A stretch of 64,000 nt of DNA. Origin: Bacteroidia bacterium (GTDB taxonomy: Bacteria; Bacteroidota; Bacteroidia; M30B66). Both the position numbers and the translations under genes were made by a program. How positions within the stretch are numbered: position 1 is the first letter of the stretch; each line of letters begins with the position of its first letter. The stretch covers positions 3,936,001-4,000,000 of the forward strand of contig OZ257142.1 of the NCBI GenBank assembly GCA_965279035.1, in the 5' to 3' direction. Positions 3,446-13,366 of the stretch are shown one piece after another. Under the pieces are notes generated by a model. The model had not been told where the DNA came from. It saw only the letters and a list, made by a program, of their open reading frames with translations, and did no database searches.

Positions 3446-4792
3446 TTAAACGACTTTGCTTTTCCATGTGCCTTTTCGCATGTATAACCAGGAAACAATC
3501 CATAAAGCAAAGAAATAGTATGGTTCAGTAAACCAAATAACAAATACATCTGCTTTTAACTGAATTCCTAAAAACCAGGCTAAGAGTAAATACGAAGCAA
3601 TTGTTATGGTTTCGATTAACAAAGATGTTTTTGTGTTACCCGATCCAGTTACTCCACTATACCAAGTCATGGCTGGGCCAAACAGCAATAAGGAAGCAGT
3701 TATTACAAATAGGGTTGGAATACTTTGGCTAATTAATCCTGTGGCGTCTTTGTTTTCAACGGCTAAACCAAGAACCATTTCTGGAATGAGTAAATTAACC
3801 AATACAAAAGGAGCAACCAGAAGCAGTGAAAGCCATGTAATGCGTTTGAGTAAAGGCAATACATCCTGATATCGGCCTTCGCCAATGGTAAACGAAACCA
3901 TCGTGTTTGAAGCAGAACTTAATCCCCAGAAAGGAACCATTTCAAACATATAAATGATTCGAATAATGACAGAAATTGCTAAGGCTCTTTCTCCACTTTG
4001 TTCAATTATGATGAAGAAAAGAAACCATCCAGCATGGGAAATAAAATTCTGAAACATCACTGGTGAAGCAATGGAAGAAATGCTTCTCATCACCTCGGGT
4101 TGCCATTTCCACGATTTAAAAAGATGATAGGTTTGATGGTATTTCCCAATATAAGCATGCGTAGCGAACCATATTAGGCCAATAATTTCTGATAGTGAAG
4201 AAGCGATTGCTGATCCGGCAATTCCTAATGAAGGAAAACCCCAAGCCCCAAAAATGAGCGCGTAATTGAGAATGACATTGGAAATTGCCATGACAATTGT
4301 GCTCCAAATAATTACGCCTGTGCTTGAAACACCAATAAAGAAAGCACGATACGCCAAATTAATCATGGCAAACGTGATCCCCCAAGCTCGATTATCTAAA
4401 TACTTGACCGAAGCTTCATAAACAGCTGGTGATTTTACTAGACTCTTTAATATGGGTGGTCCTAGAAATTCCATTCCTAGCCATAGAAACAAGGCCATTC
4501 CAACAAGGAAGATCAAACTGTTGTCGAAAATATCGCCGATCGCATGGTATTTTTTTTCTCCGTGACGACGTGCAATGAGTATTTGAACACCGGTTGAAAA
4601 TCCAAGTCCTAAAATGTAAATCGTTGTATAAAAGAGTCCCGCTAGTCCAACGGCTGCGAGCGAAACTTCATCCACTCTTGCCATAAAAAAAGCATCCGTG
4701 GCTAAAATAACGTTCGATGCAATTCCACCTATGATGATGGGTGTTGCAAGCCGCATGATATGGCCGTAGGAAGATGTTTTAGGCAATGACAT
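3446..4792 (-). CDS. MATE family efflux transporter
   Basis: About 12 TM helices; typical MATE N-terminus (LATPII...D.FF...LAAVGL) and NVILNYALIFG.WGFP.LGI.G.AIA motif. Confidence 0.9.
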   Translation of the reverse strand: MSLPKTSSYGHIMRLATPIIIGGIASNVILATDAFFMARVDEVSLAAVGLAGLFYTTIYILGLGFSTGVQILIARRHGEKKYHAIGDIFDNSLIFLVGMALFLWLGMEFLGPPILKSLVKSPAVYEASVKYLDNRAWGITFAMINLAYRAFFIGVSSTGVIIWSTIVMAISNVILNYALIFGAWGFPSLGIAGSAIASSLSEIIGLIWFATHAYIGKYHQTYHLFKSWKWQPEVMRSISSIASPVMFQNFISHAGWFLFFIIIEQSGERALAISVIIRIIYMFEMVPFWGLSSASNTMVSFTIGEGRYQDVLPLLKRITWLSLLLVAPFVLVNLLIPEMVLGLAVENKDATGLISQSIPTLFVITASLLLFGPAMTWYSGVTGSGNTKTSLLIETITIASYLLLAWFLGIQLKADVFVIWFTEPYYFFALWIVSWLYMRKGTWKSKVV

Positions 4793-4800
4793 GAATCAAA

Positions 4801-5973
4801 TTATCGAACCAAAACAACCAATCCTTTCAGGTATTCGCCTTCGGGATGATAGATACTTACTGGATGATCGGCAGGTTGAGTGAGTTGATGTAAAATCACT
4901 ACTTCGCGTCCGGCTTCAATGGCAGCTGCTGTAACAGTATTGCGGAACAATTCCCGATCAACTACTTGGGAGCAAGAAAATGTAAATAACAAACCATCTG
5001 GACCAATTTGCTCCATCGCCATTTTATTGATGCGTTTGTATGCTTGAACAGCACGGTGACGAGCATCTTGATGTTTGGCAAATGCTGGTGGATCGAGCAC
5101 AATGACATCGTATTCGGCCTTGTTCGATTTTAACCATTCGAGCACATCAGCAACAATGGCTTGATGTTTTTCTTCGGAGAAGCCGTTTAATTCAATATTT
5201 TCTTTGGTTAGCTCAATGGCTTTTTTCGAACTATCAACCGAATCAACGCGAGTTGCACCTTCTGCTAATGCATACACCGAAAATCCACCGGTATAGCAAA
5301 AGGTATTGAGTACCGTTTTGTCTTTGGAATAACGTCCAACTAACTCACGGTTATCGCGTTGATCGATGAAGAAACCCGTTTTTTGTCCAGTGATAAAATC
5401 AATGTGAAAACGATGTCCATTTTCGACATACTCTTCTTGAATTGCCTCGCCCAATAAATACGCATTGGCTCCATCTTTCCCGAGTGTTTCGGATGATTTA
5501 TCGTAAACTGCTTTGATGAGTCCGTTGCTTTGAGAAACAATCGCCTGAGCAATCATTTTACGTGATGCATACATTCCGTGCGAATGACATTGAACAACAG
5601 CTGTTGATCCGTAAACATCGACTATGAGCCCGGGCATATTATCGCCTTCGGCATGAACCAAACGGAAAATATTGGTGGCTTGAGAAGGAAATCCAATCCG
5701 ACGACGATGAGCATAGCAGCGTTCAAACGCTTCGTTCCAAAAATCTTGATCGATGAGAATATCTCCAAAAAATAATATCCGAACGGTAATTGAACCTTTT
5801 TGATAATGCCCAACACCAAGCACTTCGCCTCGTTGATCTTTAACGCGAACGGTATCGCCATCTTGAAGATCGCCTTCGGTTCGGGCAATTGCGCCAGAAA
5901 AAACCCAAGGATGAAATCGTTGAAGGGAACGTTCTTTTCCCGGTTTGAGGTGAATAACAGATAGTGCCGACAT
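4801..5973 (-). CDS. rlmI: 23S rRNA m5C1962-type methyltransferase, RlmI/RlmK family
   Basis: HPWVFSGAI (PUA), GQKTGFFIDQRDNR, VLNTFCYTGGFS, DPPAFAK, FSCS, YLK. Confidence 0.85.
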   Translation of the reverse strand: MSALSVIHLKPGKERSLQRFHPWVFSGAIARTEGDLQDGDTVRVKDQRGEVLGVGHYQKGSITVRILFFGDILIDQDFWNEAFERCYAHRRRIGFPSQATNIFRLVHAEGDNMPGLIVDVYGSTAVVQCHSHGMYASRKMIAQAIVSQSNGLIKAVYDKSSETLGKDGANAYLLGEAIQEEYVENGHRFHIDFITGQKTGFFIDQRDNRELVGRYSKDKTVLNTFCYTGGFSVYALAEGATRVDSVDSSKKAIELTKENIELNGFSEEKHQAIVADVLEWLKSNKAEYDVIVLDPPAFAKHQDARHRAVQAYKRINKMAMEQIGPDGLLFTFSCSQVVDRELFRNTVTAAAIEAGREVVILHQLTQPADHPVSIYHPEGEYLKGLVVLVR

Positions 5974-9790: not shown

Positions 9791-10726
9791 ATGAAAGGCC
9801 TCGTCATTCGTTCTACAGGAAGTTTCTGCACGGTAAAGACCGATGATGGAAATGTGCGCGAGTGCAAAGTAAAAGGTTCGTTTCGGATGAAAGGAATTAG
9901 AACAACAAACCCAATAGCAGTAGGCGATCGTGTTGTTGTTGAAGCATCACTTGGTGGTGATTATTTTGTGATTACAGAGATTGAACCTAGAGAAAACTAC
10001 ATCATCCGACGTTCAATCAATTTGAGTAAAGAGGCTCATATTTTAGCTGCCAATGTGGGGAAAGCGTTTATTATAGTTACTATCAGTTCTCCTCGTACTT
10101 CCTTAGGTTTTATCGATCGTATGCTCATTAATTGTGAAGCGTATCATATTCCAGTTTCCATTGTTGTAAATAAATGTGATACGTATTCAAGCGATGCTGA
10201 TATAGATAAATTGGCTGAATTGCAAGACATCTATAATCAAGCAGGCTATGAAGTAATCCTTGTTTCTGCTCTCAATGGATTTCAATTGGATGCCTTGAAA
10301 TTACAAATGGATGATAAAATCAATTTGTTTATTGGTCATTCTGGTGTTGGAAAATCAACCTTAATCAATTCCTTAAAACCTGGACTTCAATTAAAAACAG
10401 GAGATATTTCAGCTGCTCATAGCAAAGGAAAACACACGACTACCTTTGCCGAACTATTCGAATTGTGGGAAAATTCTTGGATTATTGATACTCCAGGAGT
10501 GAAAGAATTTGGGATTGTGGATATGAAGAAAGAAGAGATTGGTGACTATTTCCCTGAAATTCGACGCTTAGCTGAACATTGTCGCTTCAGTAACTGCATG
10601 CATGAAAATGAACCAGGATGTGCAGTAAAAGAAGCTGCCGAACATGGTGATTTTTCAGCAATTCGATACAGTTCGTATCTTGGTCTGCTCCATTCTGAAG
10701 AATTAAGTAAAGAATCCTGGGACTAA
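9791..10726 (+). CDS. rsgA: Ribosome small subunit-dependent GTPase A
   Basis: OB fold, [24 protein letters not shown]-terminal [14 protein letters not shown] zinc site. Confidence 0.95.
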
Positions 10727-10728
10727 GT

Positions 10729-11181
10729 ATGAGAGTTGTTGTCCAGCGTGTATCGAGCGCTTCCGTCAGCATTGACGATTCCGTTTACAGTAAAATCCGA
10801 CAGGGATTAGTATTGCTTGTTGGGATTGAAGAAACAGATGCAGTAGAAGATTTAGTTTGGCTAGCAGCTAAGATTGTGAACATGCGCATTTTTAGCGACG
10901 ACAAAGGGCTGATGAATAAAAGCGTAGCCGATATTTTTGGGGAAATTTTAGTGATTAGCCAATTTACCTTGTATGGTAGCACTAAAAAAGGAAATCGACC
11001 TTCGTTTATTCGCGCTGCTCGTCCAGAATATGCAACCAAATTGTATGAGATGTTTTGTGCTCAATTGAGTCAGGAATTAAGTCGACCGGTAAAGACCGGA
11101 GTATTTGGAGCTGATATGCAGGTTTCCTTGATAAATGATGGTCCTGTAACTATTTTGATTGATAGTAAGCACCGAGAATAA
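10729..11181 (+). CDS. dtd: D-aminoacyl-tRNA deacylase
   Basis: [34 protein letters not shown]. Confidence 0.95.
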
Positions 11182-12929: not shown

Positions 12930-12966
12930 AAATTCTTGATTACTTAAAAATCAATTCATCAATGAA

Positions 12967-12997
12967 GATGCTGCCCCCAAAAAGGGCGGCATTTTTT
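12967..12997 (+). terminator. Intrinsic terminator
   Basis: GATGCTGCCC-CCAAAAA-GGGCGGCATT followed by a T-run. Confidence 0.75.
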
Positions 12998-13105
12998 ATG
13001 AAATACTATTTTCGTTGATATTTTCGATTAGTAAATTATTACATATTCATAGTACTGGTCATTTGTTTATCATTTTGACATAATTATAAAATATTTACTG
13101 AATTA

Positions 13106-13137
13106 TTTGCATCGTATCCTTCTCGTTTCTATGTTTG
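13106..13137 (+). promoter_or_regulatory. Consensus Bacteroidota sigma-A promoter driving the tRNA-like RNA
   Basis: TTTG at 13106-13109 and TATGTTTG at 13130-13137, separated by 20 nt. Confidence 0.7.
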
Positions 13138-13156
13138 CAGTAATAAGTTCTTTTAT

Positions 13157-13308
13157 TGTAGGGTGTTGAAACGGCAGACAAACCCTCTTGTCTCGAGGGT
13201 GAGGAATTACAGGATAAACGATGTTTAATGGGTTGACCACTCCCTTCTGCTTGCAGAAGTTGAACATTGGCTAACTGCCTCGTGGAGGTTCGAATCCTTC
13301 TCCTACAG
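13157..13308 (+). ncRNA. tRNA-like RNA (GUC anticodon loop) with an 84-nt structured insertion at the variable arm
   Basis: Acceptor TGTAGGG/TCCTACA plus G73; D-arm TTG-AAACGGCAGA-CAA; anticodon arm CCCTC-TTGTCTC-GAGGG; T-arm GGAGG-TTCGAAT-CCTTC; variable region 13200-13283; no encoded CCA. Confidence 0.8.
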
Positions 13309-13325
13309 CGAATCCCCTAATACCC

Positions 13326-13366
13326 AGCCCCCGACGTTTGTGATGGTTCGTCGGGGGTTATTTTTT
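13326..13366 (+). terminator. Intrinsic terminator downstream of the tRNA-like RNA (also faces the convergent peptidase gene)
   Basis: AGCCCCCGACG...CGTCGGGGGTT stem followed by ATTTTTT. Confidence 0.75.

Follow-up and report, generated by a model that had tools for sequence, protein, structure and literature searches.

In canonical elongator tRNAs, the variable region does not exceed about 21 nt. tmRNA has a tRNA-like acceptor and T-arm together with large added domains, lacks an anticodon arm, and carries a tag reading frame. The tRNA cluster of phage T4 gives rise to stable non-tRNA RNAs, "species 1/2". In YrlA, which also occurs in phages, a Ro60-binding helix replaces the anticodon arm, and the rsr gene adjoins that of YrlA. 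YrlA is described as a bacterial Y RNA with a tRNA-like module (Chen et al. 2014, PMC4201824), and allo-tRNAs and tRNA-Sec are described as non-canonical class II tRNAs (Mukai et al. 2017, PMC5389517).

The RNA analyzed here has something in common with each of these. Like YrlA, it is non-coding, stands alone, mimics a tRNA, and has a structured domain added to it; unlike YrlA, it has an intact anticodon arm, the addition sits at the variable arm, no Ro60 gene recurs nearby, and Rfam has no match. Like tmRNA, its relatives reside in phage tRNA arrays. By description it resembles the T4 species, as an RNA encoded among phage tRNA genes, with the difference that it is shared with host chromosomes. 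Like the allo-tRNAs and tRNA-Sec, it is a class II molecule whose anticodon is mismatched to its body type. In contrast to their 8/5, 9/4, 8/4 or 9/3 geometries, it has 7/5 geometry, along with U37 and a far larger variable arm.

The gene was found in the window, i.e., the whole 64-kb stretch of Bacteroidia DNA that was analyzed. It is 152 nt long (13157–13308, + strand), with a Bacteroidetes-type promoter 5′ and a hairpin/T-run terminator 3′ (Table 1). The locus is a stand-alone gene, and its RNA folds as an L-shape-competent cloverleaf with a structured variable-arm domain. A preliminary description, made from the letters of the window, had seen here a complete transcription unit devoid of an ORF. 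The promoter, stems, insert helices, and terminator were all re-read in the sequence, and the RNA is free of overlap with any ORF of at least 60 aa. The RNAfold minimum free energy structure (−46.3 kcal/mol) is this cloverleaf with the extra arm. Calculated for the single window sequence, the z-score of that energy against shuffles is weak at −1.22, a value in favor of a decaying tRNA-Leu pseudogene or a chance fold.

The Bacteroidetes promoter consensus is TTTG/TAnnTTTG. In a crude scan, 22 of the 50 family copies have a TAnnTTTG box in the 70 nt preceding them, the downstream copies of tandem sets having none; by a similarly crude measure, a stable hairpin preceding a T run lies downstream of 22/50. 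The sigma-70 scan of the window covers promoters other than the Bacteroidetes type, and the terminator scan missed the window's hairpin because its loop limit was 8 nt.

Table 1. Features of the tRNA-like RNA locus, in window coordinates.
Feature	Position	Strand	Details
Promoter-like element	13106–13137	+	−33 TTTG 13106–13109, 20-nt spacer, −7 TATGTTTG 13130–13137; read directly
tRNA-like RNA	13157–13309	+	U1 13157, A72 13307, G73 13308, C74 13309; cmsearch match 13156–13312, 132.2 bits
Acceptor stem	TGTAGGG 13157–13163 with TCCTACA 13301–13307	+	7 bp
U8 G9, Leu-type D arm, position 26	13164–13182	+	TTG-AAACGGCAGA-CAA
D arm, detail	13164–13182	+	3-bp stem; loop with G18 G19 C20 A20a G21
Anticodon-like arm	13183–13199	+	stem CCCUC/GAGGG; loop UUGUCUC 13188–13194: G34 U35 C36 U37 C38
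Variable-arm insert	13201–13281	+	81 nt
Insert P1v, GAGG/CCTC	13201–13204 with 13278–13281	+	
Insert bulge	13205–13209	+	
Insert P2v, CAG/CTG	13210–13212 with 13275–13277	+	
Insert internal loop	GAUAAA 13213–13218 opposite CUAA 13271–13274	+	
Insert P3	13219–13228 with 13260–13270	+	10-bp helix
Insert hairpin UGGGUUGACCA	13229–13239	+	TGG-GTTGA-CCA
Insert hairpin CTTCTG-CTTG-CAGAAG	13244–13259	+	CUUG loop
G47, U48, T arm	13282–13300	+	T arm 13284–13300, GGAGG-UUCGAAU-CCUUC
Intrinsic-terminator-like hairpin	13328–13366	+	9-bp G+C-rich stem, 12-nt loop, then UUAUUUUUU
Terminator stem	CCCCCGACG 13328–13336 with CGTCGGGGG 13349–13357	+	then TTATTTTTT

Standard annotation does not see the gene. ARAGORN, run on the whole window, reported 0 genes, neither tRNA nor tmRNA, and called no tRNA in six further family loci. 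Rfam 15 gave 0 matches in the window at gathering thresholds; at permissive settings (E up to 10) there was no tRNA match, only two chance snoRNA matches with E values of 2.3 and 5.6. The window scores 132 bits (E 8e-36) with a covariance model derived from 31 homologs. Family members score 77–146 bits with this model, and ordinary tRNAs, tRNA-Leu included, score at most 62 bits. tRNA-Leu genes are the best ordinary matches (33–62 bits), which bears out the Leu-type body named in the preliminary description.

Members of the family occur in 49 of the 401 Bacteroidota genomes sampled, with Hymenobacter, Ohtaekwangia, Fulvivirga, and Reichenbachiella among the named carriers; four Flavobacteriales genomes have no copy. 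At least 120 metagenome contigs and 79 IMG/VR phage contigs also have copies, those of phages often within tRNA arrays. No earlier description of such an RNA was found in the openly accessible literature, and its proposed novelty stands against ARAGORN, Rfam, and that literature alike. The family is a large set of tRNA-Leu-derived, tRNA-shaped RNAs, absent from Rfam 15 and uncalled by ARAGORN. The RNA is real, conserved in Bacteroidota and their phages, and probably abundant.

The fold is supported by covariation among 48 distinct homologs. Compensatory double changes occur in 13 of the 28 modelled pairs. Paired cells make up 93.2% of the total versus 87.5% in shuffles, and none of 500 shuffles attains the observed value; sliding the partner columns by 1–3 positions drops the figure to 54–64%. 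The seven acceptor-stem pairs are 100% paired, with the top three (U1-A72, G2-C71, U3-A70) invariant and the compensatory changes confined to the lower four. In the D stem, pair 10:25 covaries (A-U 24, U-A 15, G-C 6). The anticodon stem is 97.5% paired with zero double changes. The T stem is 100% paired, and the T loop UUCGAAU and U48 are invariant in the 31 aligned homologs. Other nucleotides of the canonical cloverleaf are present as well: U8, A14, G18 G19, and U54 U55 C56. RNAalifold also proposed a pairing of AGACA in the D arm with UGUCU in the loop. It was rejected because one homolog with UAUCU (L098) and two with AGCCA (L009, L082) lose this pairing and show no compensating change, whereas pair 10:25 of the cloverleaf covaries. 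The compensatory changes, the numerous homologs, and the 132-bit score of the window uphold the view of the preliminary description that this is a selected RNA rather than a decayed tRNA.

The anticodon-like loop is also strongly constrained. The types found are CUGUCUC (20 of the 48 homologs), UUGUCUC (18), CUAUCUC (3), UCGUCUC (2), CUCUCUC (2), CGGUCUC (2), and CUGUCCC (1). That is, position 37 is U in 47/48 and C in 1/48, U33 is replaced in 4/48, and position 34 is A or C in 5/48. The Asp-type loop that had been pointed out differs from that of the carriers' own tRNA-Asp, CUGUCAC, at position 37 and nowhere else.

The variable arm ranges from 37 to 139 nt across the family, the upper figure being approximate. 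Its proximal part, consisting of two helices and a GANAAA/CUAA internal loop, is conserved, and the distal part ranges in length between 8 and 96 nt; the independent folding that the preliminary description ascribed to the insert is thus conserved and covarying in the proximal part and variable beyond it. P1v occurs in 9 and P2v in 17 different pair combinations among the 48 homologs. All three P2v pairs form in 36 of the 48 sequences and two of three in the remaining 12. The internal loop has a GANAAA-like strand opposite CUAA in 47/48. In the UAA/GAN motif, a UAA strand lies opposite a GAN strand beside a Watson-Crick pair, forms a cross-strand stack of adenines, and takes part in tertiary contacts. 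CUAA opposite GAN-AAA, flanked by the covarying P2v helix, carries the signature of this motif at the level of sequence. Half of the bacterial copies (24/48) and most phage copies (59/63) contain a GGKWGACCA hairpin, which short forms lack. The suggestion that the insert might be removable finds no support in any of the results.

The nearest ordinary relative is bacterial tRNA-Leu. The D arms are near-identical (U8 G9, 3-bp stem, G18 G19, 20a, G21), and U48, the T loop, a long variable arm, and a gene end at N73-C74 are shared. Ordinary tRNA genes in related genomes likewise end at N73-C74, with CCA unencoded. The family differs from tRNA-Leu in having G73 for A73 and U1-A72 for G1-C72, in its YUGUCUC loop versus a Leu anticodon followed by purine 37, and in its 37–139-nt arm with a conserved internal loop. 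As for the tRNAs of transamidation, the family joins the loop determinants and G73 of tRNA-Asp to the U1-A72 pair of tRNA-Asn, and differs from both in its class II Leu-type body, U37, and large insert.

Giege and Eriani (2023, PMC9976931) give G73, G34, U35, C36, and C38 as strong Asp determinants, and also G10, G1-C72, and G2-C71; G1-C72 is called important for bacterial AspRS, and G73 is listed as a LeuRS antideterminant. In the homologs, as read from sequence, G73, U35, C36, and C38 each occur in 48/48 and G34 in 43/48. G2-C71 is likewise found in 48/48, G1-C72 is replaced by U1-A72 in 48/48, and G10 is found in only 6/48. Bailly et al. (2006, PMC1635274) describe U1-A72 as promoting amidation, G1-C72 as preventing it, and a supernumerary U20A as an antideterminant of the amidotransferase. 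The U1-A72 pair occurs in 48/48 bacterial and 61/63 phage copies of the family; in the same genomes, tRNA-Asn has U1-A72 in 4/5 and tRNA-Asp has G1-C72 in 5/5. The Leu-type D loop of the family RNA contains a 20a nucleotide (A). The 20A rule may not apply in the carriers, because the D loops of their tRNA-Asn and tRNA-Asp are equal in length. Canonical tRNA-Asp(GUC) is present in 5/5 RNA-positive genomes tested.

Phage carriage of the RNA was not anticipated in the preliminary description. The phage tRNA arrays that hold it also hold tRNA-Asp, tRNA-Asn, and tmRNA. Of 63 phage copies, 32 are of a UGAAU type, and many swap GANAAA/CUAA for GAAAUAG/UGAAUC; phage copies also carry extra D-loop hairpins. 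Among GenBank phages (INPHARED), the single match, with 71% identity, is in an uncultured, unannotated phage of 636 kb. A search of 48 phage records, a subset of the 79 phage loci, gave no GatB_N. A freshwater metatranscriptome contains 82 contigs of family relatives, with a single-contig depth of up to 25000. The RNA runs gave zero cover of the window-specific part of the insert (13206–13257), so that expression is known from family relatives.

In bacteria, an AsnC-type regulator recurs beside the gene. In 29 of 41 genome loci (27/38, plus 2/3 later loci) it lies next to the RNA gene in divergent orientation, with an intergenic region of about 120–280 nt; it is also adjacent in 44 of the 62 metagenome loci with room upstream, and it is found in 0/72 phage loci. 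The divergent upstream gene is AsnC-like, scoring 154–173 bits with the NCBIfam AsnC model versus 45–47 bits with that for Lrp, and its best PDB match is E. coli AsnC (2cg4, E 1.3e-37). About 30% of bacterial loci, including that of the window, have no nearby AsnC gene; a tblastn search of the 64-kb window with the AsnC-like protein gave a best E of only 0.71. The outer flanks of the regulator vary between loci (SufB, ABC permease, RRF, AMP-binding enzyme), and the other, non-AsnC neighbors are mutually unrelated: aspartate kinase/homoserine dehydrogenase, ArfB, Obg, RRF, pseudouridine synthase, and a beta-lactamase-fold protein. One copy has a class IIb synthetase gene immediately upstream, which proved to encode LysRS. 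Among recurrent neighbors there is no Ro60, RtcB, nuclease, defense, or transferase gene; where the preliminary description had pointed to Ro60 and RtcB as neighbors to look for, it is the AsnC-type regulator that recurs. In RNA-negative genomes, the AsnC homologs adjoin genes for S41/M14 peptidases or saccharopine dehydrogenase and not asnA/asnB, and in-situ replacement of asnA/asnB was rejected for that reason.

The gene content of the carriers is of interest with respect to asparagine. All 46 BLAST-positive genomes fall within the 343 that are GatB-positive and 0 among the 58 that are GatB-negative, and 42 of the 46 fall among the 130 that also have GlnRS, counts that ignore phylogeny. GatB_N is present in 8/8 model-positive named genomes. 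Fifteen genomes were examined closely. The eight that are RNA-positive have GatB and AsnRS and lack an E. coli-type AsnB, and 7/8 have no AsnA; the five that are GatB-negative have an E. coli-type AsnB and no family RNA. All 15 have asparagine synthase paralogs of the TIGR01536 class, 620–660 aa in length. Among 80 further GatB+GlnRS+ genomes, 77 are without the RNA, as are two GatB+ genomes. For Bacteroidetes in which AsnRS, GlnRS, and GatCAB occur together, the literature explains the combination by a non-discriminating AspRS acting on tRNA-Asn. The ordinary transamidation route, using tRNA-Asn with U1-A72, is available in 4/5 genomes. On present knowledge the family RNA is not needed, because the ordinary AspRS/tRNA-Asn/GatCAB route is both available and published.

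The first proposal is that the family RNA does not decode on the ribosome. This seems probable, because of U37, the occasional loss of U33, the inconstant position 34, the length of the variable arms (as much as about 139 nt), and the D-loop hairpins of phage copies; the preliminary description, too, had thought normal decoding unlikely, and U37 in 47/48, the U33 losses, and the long arms suggest the same. The second is that the RNA is matured like a tRNA, by RNase P cleavage, 3′ trimming after G73-C74, and CCA addition, and that AspRS then loads aspartate onto it; we would give this an even chance. Aspartylation is predicted because G73, G34, U35, C36, and C38 plus G2-C71 are kept, and G73 would also block LeuRS. 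The third is that the invariant U1-A72 pair serves as a determinant for bacterial GatCAB, which would amidate the attached Asp to Asn, so that the RNA would carry the amino acid for tRNA-dependent synthesis of asparagine outside translation. Through its structured variable arm and U37, the mismatched Asn-RNA, which has an Asp anticodon, would be kept off EF-Tu and the ribosome. An Asn-charged family RNA would be unusable for Asn codons because its anticodon is Asp, not Asn. As a whole, this chain (no decoding, charging by AspRS, amidation by GatCAB, and a carrier role in making asparagine) is put forward tentatively, with the balance of probability against it.

In bacteria, the adjacent AsnC-type regulator would switch the RNA on; phages, including jumbo phages of 200–330 kb, would have copied it as an auxiliary metabolic RNA and would supply it constitutively. 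The full picture, i.e., a regulated, translation-independent asparagine route via a dedicated tRNA-like cofactor, AsnC-switched in Cytophagales and Saprospirales and copied by phages, is slightly more doubtful. Several observations speak against the asparagine chain: G1-C72 is replaced, G10 is rare, TIGR01536 paralogs exist, and no GatB was found in the 48 phage records searched; moreover, most further GatB+GlnRS+ genomes are without the RNA, about 30% of loci are without AsnC, and phage arrays hold tRNA-Asp and tRNA-Asn. The asparagine model also leaves the role of the conserved insert unexplained. Among the functions named as candidates in the preliminary description, a non-ribosomal Asp donor fits the new evidence best.

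Other roles can be read from the same features. Phages use variant tRNAs against tRNA-cleaving defenses, and the family RNA might be an anticodon-arm mimic of tRNA-Asp, acting as a decoy or sponge for a tRNA-Asp-binding protein and, in phages, as counter-defense. The targets proposed are an anticodon nuclease cutting G/Q34-U35 tRNAs, the tRNA-guanine transglycosylase, or AspRS, for which U37 and the bulky arms would make the RNA a non-productive or resistant ligand. A loop that is tRNA-Asp-like except at position 37, the 79 phage contigs, many with the RNA beside arrays of replacement tRNAs and none with an AsnC gene, and the great abundance of relatives in the RNA library are all consistent with a decoy. 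It would leave unexplained the acceptor end (U1-A72, G2-C71, G73, C74), which is as invariant as the loop, the AsnC-type neighbor in about 70% of bacterial loci, and the restriction to GatB-positive genomes, and no nuclease or defense gene recurs nearby; we regard this role as unlikely. So is that of an unaminoacylated scaffold, which would owe its stability and processing to the tRNA shape in the manner of bacterial Y RNAs, and whose GANAAA/CUAA loop and GGKWGACCA hairpin would bind a putative dedicated protein or else contact the body of the tRNA. It is indeed the insert that holds the best-conserved elements foreign to tRNAs (CUAA in 47/48; the hairpin in 24/48 bacterial and 59/63 phage copies), and its loop has the signature of the UAA/GAN tertiary-contact motif. 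A scaffold does not account for the complete Asp identity set or the conservation of the acceptor end, however, nor does it sit well with the short forms that have no hairpin and the many phage copies that replace GANAAA/CUAA; the regulator aside, no protein partner gene recurs next to the RNA.

An improbable alternative is that the RNA is a working, if unusual, class II tRNA-Asp isoacceptor that decodes GAY, possibly a backup resisting a toxin directed at the anticodon loop. All core tertiary nucleotides of tRNA and a canonical T loop are kept, the Asp identity set is present, and the gene ends at N73-C74 as in real tRNAs; a toxin-resistant backup would also explain the placement between ordinary tRNA genes in phage arrays. 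Yet U37 occupies, in 47/48, a position where a purine is expected, U33 is lost in 4/48, and A or C at position 34 in 5/48 would change or blur the codon read. The variable arms of up to about 139 nt and the extra phage D-loop hairpins argue against decoding too, as do the canonical tRNA-Asp in all genomes tested and in phage arrays and the rejection of the RNA by ARAGORN and the Rfam tRNA model. More improbable again is an Asp-charged donor for a non-ribosomal aminoacyl-tRNA transferase (with a lipid, the cell wall, or a natural product as acceptor) with no amidation involved. The arguments for charging are the same as those for an asparagine carrier, and exclusion from decoding suits a dedicated donor, but no transferase gene recurs nearby and the U1-A72, GatB, and AsnC observations go unused. 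As for a decaying tRNA-Leu pseudogene or a chance fold, the weak z-score of the window sequence is outweighed by hundreds of homologs with compensatory changes, a promoter and terminator of its own, a conserved neighbor, and relatives in RNA libraries, and this explanation is refuted.

Provided that the family is what it seems, it constitutes a major RNA class missing from the catalogs, carried by about 1 in 8 sampled Bacteroidota genomes, by cultured genera such as Hymenobacter and Ohtaekwangia, and by many environmental phages, and it may be expressed at tRNA-like levels. Whether the RNA serves asparagine synthesis or acts as a decoy, standard tRNA and Rfam annotation is blind to it, and genome pipelines miss it. 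It offers a testable case of a tRNA-shaped RNA that has a full synthetase identity set and is apparently barred from decoding. Were it a decoy, it would bear on tRNA-targeted immunity. Were it a carrier for asparagine, it would be the first known tRNA-like RNA to serve amino-acid biosynthesis alone and, in phages, the first "auxiliary metabolic gene" that is an RNA; the retention of GatCAB in bacteria already equipped with AsnRS and GlnRS would then be explained.

The locus reads as a unit of a promoter-like element, a short leader, the tRNA-like RNA, and a G+C-rich hairpin followed by a T run. The sequence, re-read, agrees with the preliminary description, which had placed at 13106-13366 of the window a stand-alone RNA with a Leu-type core, an Asp anticodon, and U37. 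No ORF of at least 60 aa overlaps the RNA. Its minimum free energy structure is a cloverleaf with an extra arm (-46.3 kcal/mol, RNAfold), with a single-sequence z-score of only -1.22. The RNA is uncalled by ARAGORN, which reports neither a tRNA nor a tmRNA anywhere in the window, and is without an Rfam family: Rfam 15 gives no match at the RNA at gathering thresholds and no tRNA-related match in the 451-nt region at E up to 10.

Upstream lie genes for RsgA, D-aminoacyl-tRNA deacylase (Dtd), and a T9SS-sorted protein; downstream, on the opposite strand, lies an M28 peptidase gene. These flanks, all chromosomal genes, indicate that the window belongs to Bacteroidota. The hairpin that directly follows the T9SS-sorted protein gene looks like the terminator of that gene, and as such would isolate the transcription unit of the RNA. 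Other family copies adjoin RRF, ArfB, Obg, LysRS, or pseudouridine synthase genes. These neighbors, like Dtd and RsgA at the window locus, may simply be the usual company of tRNA genes.

Features of the locus, of the variable-arm insert, and of phage loci (window positions, or contig positions after an L handle, which names a family locus)
Feature	Position	Strand	Remark
RsgA GTPase gene	9791-10726	+	2-3 kb upstream of the RNA
D-aminoacyl-tRNA deacylase gene	10729-11181	+	2-3 kb upstream of the RNA
GCUGCCCCC-AAAAA-GGGCGGC hairpin and T run	12965-12998	+	
Promoter-like element TTTG-N20-TATGTTTG	13106-13137	+	sequence reading
Short leader	between promoter-like element and U1 (13157)	+	sequence reading
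tRNA-like RNA	U1 13157 to G73 13308, C74 13309	+	sequence reading
9-bp G+C-rich hairpin (before a T run)	13328-13357	+	sequence reading
Insert helix P1v, 4 bp			9 different pair combinations (48 copies)
Insert A-rich 5' bulge			3-5 nt in 43/48 copies; extra hairpin instead in 5
Insert helix P2v, 3 bp			17 combinations; 3/3 pairs in 36/48 copies, 2/3 in the other 12
Insert asymmetric internal loop			GANAAA (GAUAAA 24, GACAAA 9) opposite CUAA (47/48)
Example phage copies with D-loop hairpin and GAAAUAG/UGAAUC loop	L191:7908-8083, L253:8858-9034, L224:4917-5092		
Phage tmRNA genes	L191:1028-1383, L203:6311-6704, L260:7105-7491		with tag peptides, beside tRNA arrays
Phage PF01467 gene, 150 aa	L222:6592-7041	-	also in 7 related phage loci
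Other phage array RNAs, 126-153 nt	L246:5266-5413, L246:5061-5186, L249:7475-7600, L196:7679-7831	-	

The neighboring M28 peptidase, with a best match at 66% identity, gave access to relatives, and BLAST matches to the RNA occur in 46 of 401 genomes sampled across the phylum. A covariance model, R1 (147 positions, 28 pairs), was built from 31 aligned full-length copies. R1 separates the family cleanly: bacterial family loci score 95-146 bits and the window RNA 132, versus 28-62 for ordinary tRNAs, the best of which are tRNA-Leu. Covariation and motifs were counted in 48 distinct bacterial copies. Both sides change in 13 of the 28 modeled pairs. Pairing holds in 93.2% of cells, versus 87.5% in shuffles (0/500 as high) and 54-64% after sliding of the partners. 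It is complete (100%) in the acceptor stem, where 4/7 pairs show compensation, and in the helix at the base of the insert (3/4 pairs). D-stem pair 10:25 occurs as A-U (24 copies), U-A (15), and G-C (6), and no double changes were seen in the anticodon stem, 97.5% of which is paired. Many genomes carry tandem copies 50-540 nt apart (L093, L094-L096, L120, L127, L128, L092, L098, L100-L102, L148, L149), often one short form (113-123 nt) and one long. The two Reichenbachiella copies differ in loop, CUAUCUC vs CUCUCUC.

Parsing the same 48 copies revealed a fixed proximal module in the insert, including a GANAAA/CUAA internal loop, which bears the sequence signature of the UAA/GAN motif. Beyond this module, a helix closes a distal part of 8-96 nt, which is a simple tetraloop hairpin in the shortest copies and a three-way junction with a conserved GGKWGACCA hairpin in longer ones; that hairpin occurs in 24/48 bacterial copies. 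Across the family the variable arm spans 37-139 nt. Thus, the 81-nt insert of the window RNA, which the preliminary description gave as an 84-nt folded domain, is a genuine, selected element as regards its proximal half and its UGGGUUGACCA hairpin; its CUUG hairpin is lineage-specific.

The family D arm is nearly that of tRNA-Leu in the same genomes, but the discriminator is G73, not A73, in all 48 bacterial copies. The first pair is U1-A72 in 48/48. Among these copies the loop is CUGUCUC (20), UUGUCUC (18), CUAUCUC (3), UCGUCUC (2), CUCUCUC (2), CGGUCUC (2), or CUGUCCC (1); position 37 is U in 47/48, U33 is lost in 4/48, and position 34 is other than G in 5/48. All 5 carrier genomes tested have a canonical tRNA-Asp(GUC); the family RNA is therefore distinct from the cellular tRNA-Asp. 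In carriers, ordinary tRNA genes end N73-C74, CCA not being encoded. The family genes end G73-C74 in 48/48 bacterial and 63/63 phage copies, which would fit maturation by the tRNA machinery.

The sections of Giege and Eriani (2023, PMC9976931) on these systems give G73, G34, U35, C36, C38, and G10 as bacterial aspartate identity elements, with G1-C72 and G2-C71 adding to them, and name G73 as a LeuRS antideterminant. In the family, G73, U35, C36, C38, and G2-C71 are each present in 48/48 copies and G34 in 43/48; the departures are G10, in just 6/48, and G1-C72, which is absent. In the carriers themselves, CUGUCAC is the loop of tRNA-Asp, which has G1-C72, and CUGUUAA that of tRNA-Asn, which has U1-A72 in 4/5 genomes and G1-C72 in Hymenobacter. 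For the bacterial amidotransferase, Bailly et al. (2006, PMC1635274) report that amidation of Asp bound to tRNA-Asn is promoted by U1-A72 and blocked by G1-C72 and U20A. Judged by its sequence, then, the RNA is a three-way chimera: its body is of Leu type, its anticodon loop and discriminator are of Asp type, and its first pair is of Asn type.

Expression data concern relatives. The likely source DNA run, X1, covers the RNA stretch fully at depth 152. Two more family members are present in X1 on separate contigs, aligned to window 13173-13309, one (depth 29.8) with the insert replaced by a 19-nt segment without the CUAA loop and one (depth 102.7) with a GGGUCGACCAC hairpin; the source sample therefore contains other organisms or paralogs. 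In a freshwater metatranscriptome, X19, 82 contigs align to the conserved 5' and 3' parts, with single-contig depth up to 25000 and summed depth of 106000-172000 over 13271-13309 and 3800-5500 over 13167-13205. Family-type inserts, among them a GGGUCGACCAC hairpin and a GAUAAAGCA...GAGCUCG arm, are visible in their unaligned ends. From a further RNA run came a single contig of 172 nt, at depth 73, that belongs to a relative. These data speak for abundant transcripts of relatives rather than for transcription of the window locus itself, and RNA libraries can contain DNA.

Clustering of flanking ORFs gave a sole recurrent neighbor, a divergent gene that lies upstream of the RNA at a distance of 120-280 nt and encodes a protein of about 155 aa with Pfam HTH_AsnC-type and AsnC_trans_reg domains. 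It scores 154-173 bits against the NCBIfam AsnC equivalog (model cut-off 227) versus 45-47 against Lrp, and E. coli AsnC (2cg4, E 1.3e-37) is its best match with a solved structure. The gene is adjacent in 27/38 genome loci, in 2/3 loci found later, and in 44/62 loci of an independent metagenome sample, counting loci for which 700 nt or more of upstream sequence was available. Genes beyond the pair vary by locus (SufB, ABC permease, RRF, AMP-binding enzyme); thus, the conserved unit is regulator plus RNA. The window itself has no AsnC-type gene, and AsnC homologs of RNA-negative genomes adjoin peptidase or saccharopine dehydrogenase genes. E. coli AsnC is described, in the part of PMC2504300 that concerns it, as an asparagine-responsive activator of the divergent asnA.

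R1 is positive in Fulvivirga, Hymenobacter latericoloratus, one Lewinellaceae MAG, and Saprospiraceae and Cyclobacteriaceae MAGs, and finds two copies in Ohtaekwangia koreensis (tandem), Reichenbachiella, and a Thermoflexibacter MAG; Dokdonia, Flavobacterium, Aquimarina, and Gramella have no match. Among 15 Bacteroidota genomes profiled closely (G001-G005, G406-G415), the 8 carriers all have GatB and AsnRS, 6/8 have GlnRS, and 0/8 have E. coli-type AsnB (NF006949); among these carriers, AsnA is found in Hymenobacter only, whose RNA has a CUC loop. The GatB-negative genomes have E. coli-type AsnB in 5/5 and the RNA in 0/5, and two GatB-positive, GlnRS-negative MAGs lack the RNA. E. coli-type AsnB (about 555-560 aa) and GatB are mutually exclusive in this set, the former occurring in 5/5 GatB-negative versus 0/10 GatB-positive genomes. 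Of the 401 sampled genomes, 343 encode GatB and 186 encode GlnRS. The 46 BLAST-positive genomes fall as 42/130 GatB+GlnRS+, 4/213 GatB+GlnRS-, and 0/58 GatB-; the contrast of the first two classes gives a Fisher value of 8e-19, which ignores phylogeny. R1, run with stricter filters on 80 of the 88 BLAST-negative GatB+GlnRS+ genomes, added 3 carriers and left 77 without the RNA. Two points count against a strict requirement for the RNA: TIGR01536-class asparagine synthase paralogs (620-660 aa) occur in 15/15 genomes, and Alperstein et al. (2014, PMC4206432) attribute the retention of GatCAB in such Bacteroidetes to a non-discriminating AspRS that acts on tRNA-Asn.

A degenerate pattern of 27 letters, taken from the D-arm/anticodon-arm region, matched 79 IMG/VR contigs and at least 120 contigs from metagenomes. 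Family members are present at every one of the 79 phage loci (57-145 bits), 77 of them full-length at 77-145 bits and two cut at a contig end (L219, 110.8 bits; L241, 57.4 bits). GenBank phages gave a single match, an unannotated 636-kb uncultured phage. The first pair is U1-A72 in 61/63 phage copies and A1-U72 in 2/63; G2-C71, G73, and C74 are each found in 63/63, pair 3:70 covaries, and the GGKWGACCA hairpin occurs in 59/63. Many phage copies have GAAAUAG/UGAAUC in place of GANAAA/CUAA, and many have an extra D-loop hairpin of about 20-25 nt between A14-A15 and G18. AsnC genes are found in 0/72 phage loci with room upstream and GatB in 0/48 phage records; 9 of the 48 are at least 90% complete by CheckV (61-326 kb), one with terminal repeats. 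A large terminase subunit lies within 3 kb of the RNA in 10 phage loci. ARAGORN finds tRNA genes near the RNA in 14/20 loci scanned, 11 of the 14 having arrays of 8-25 tRNAs, often with tRNA-Asp and tRNA-Asn, and 3 also a tmRNA. In the L222-type group, a PF01467 cytidylyltransferase-like gene, on the same strand as the RNA, has its 3' end about 50 nt upstream of it, and metallophosphoesterase and PD-(D/E)XK exonuclease genes recur within 3 kb. Some arrays hold other RNAs with tRNA-Leu-like acceptor stem, D arm, T arm, and A73, in which a large unrelated insert takes the place of the anticodon and the variable region; their R1 scores are about 50 bits, and they are uncalled by ARAGORN. They may represent another type of expanded tRNA-like RNA, or else tRNA-Leu genes with introns.

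On a tRNA, about 75 Å separate the acceptor end from the anticodon loop, and the simplest explanation for their joint invariance is an enzyme that recognizes both. The set conserved at these two sites is that of AspRS. To our knowledge, GatCAB is the one other enzyme that acts on Asp-tRNA, and its determinant is U1-A72. Decoding would be expected to suffer from U37, from a variable arm of this great size, and from the D-loop hairpins. Thus, the RNA is probably not a decoding tRNA; that it is aminoacylated with Asp we consider an even chance. We suggest that AspRS would charge the RNA with Asp and that GatCAB, via U1-A72, would amidate the bound Asp to asparagine, the RNA serving as a non-translational Asp acceptor for making asparagine.

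Phage copies would suit such a carrier as an auxiliary metabolic RNA, and they are also compatible with a decoy or with a backup tRNA. Neither of the latter explains the invariance of the acceptor end, the AsnC link, or the GatB link. With the AspRS set, U1-A72, the features expected to hinder decoding, the AsnC-type regulator, and the confinement of the RNA to GatB-positive genomes taken together, an acceptor on which asparagine is made is the most coherent reading; as a whole chain, with steps beyond structure that we infer, it is a tentative possibility. Full-text literature searches found no published description of such an RNA. tRNA-like non-coding RNAs are already known as a kind from YrlA and tmRNA; if its carrier function were confirmed, this RNA would be categorically new.
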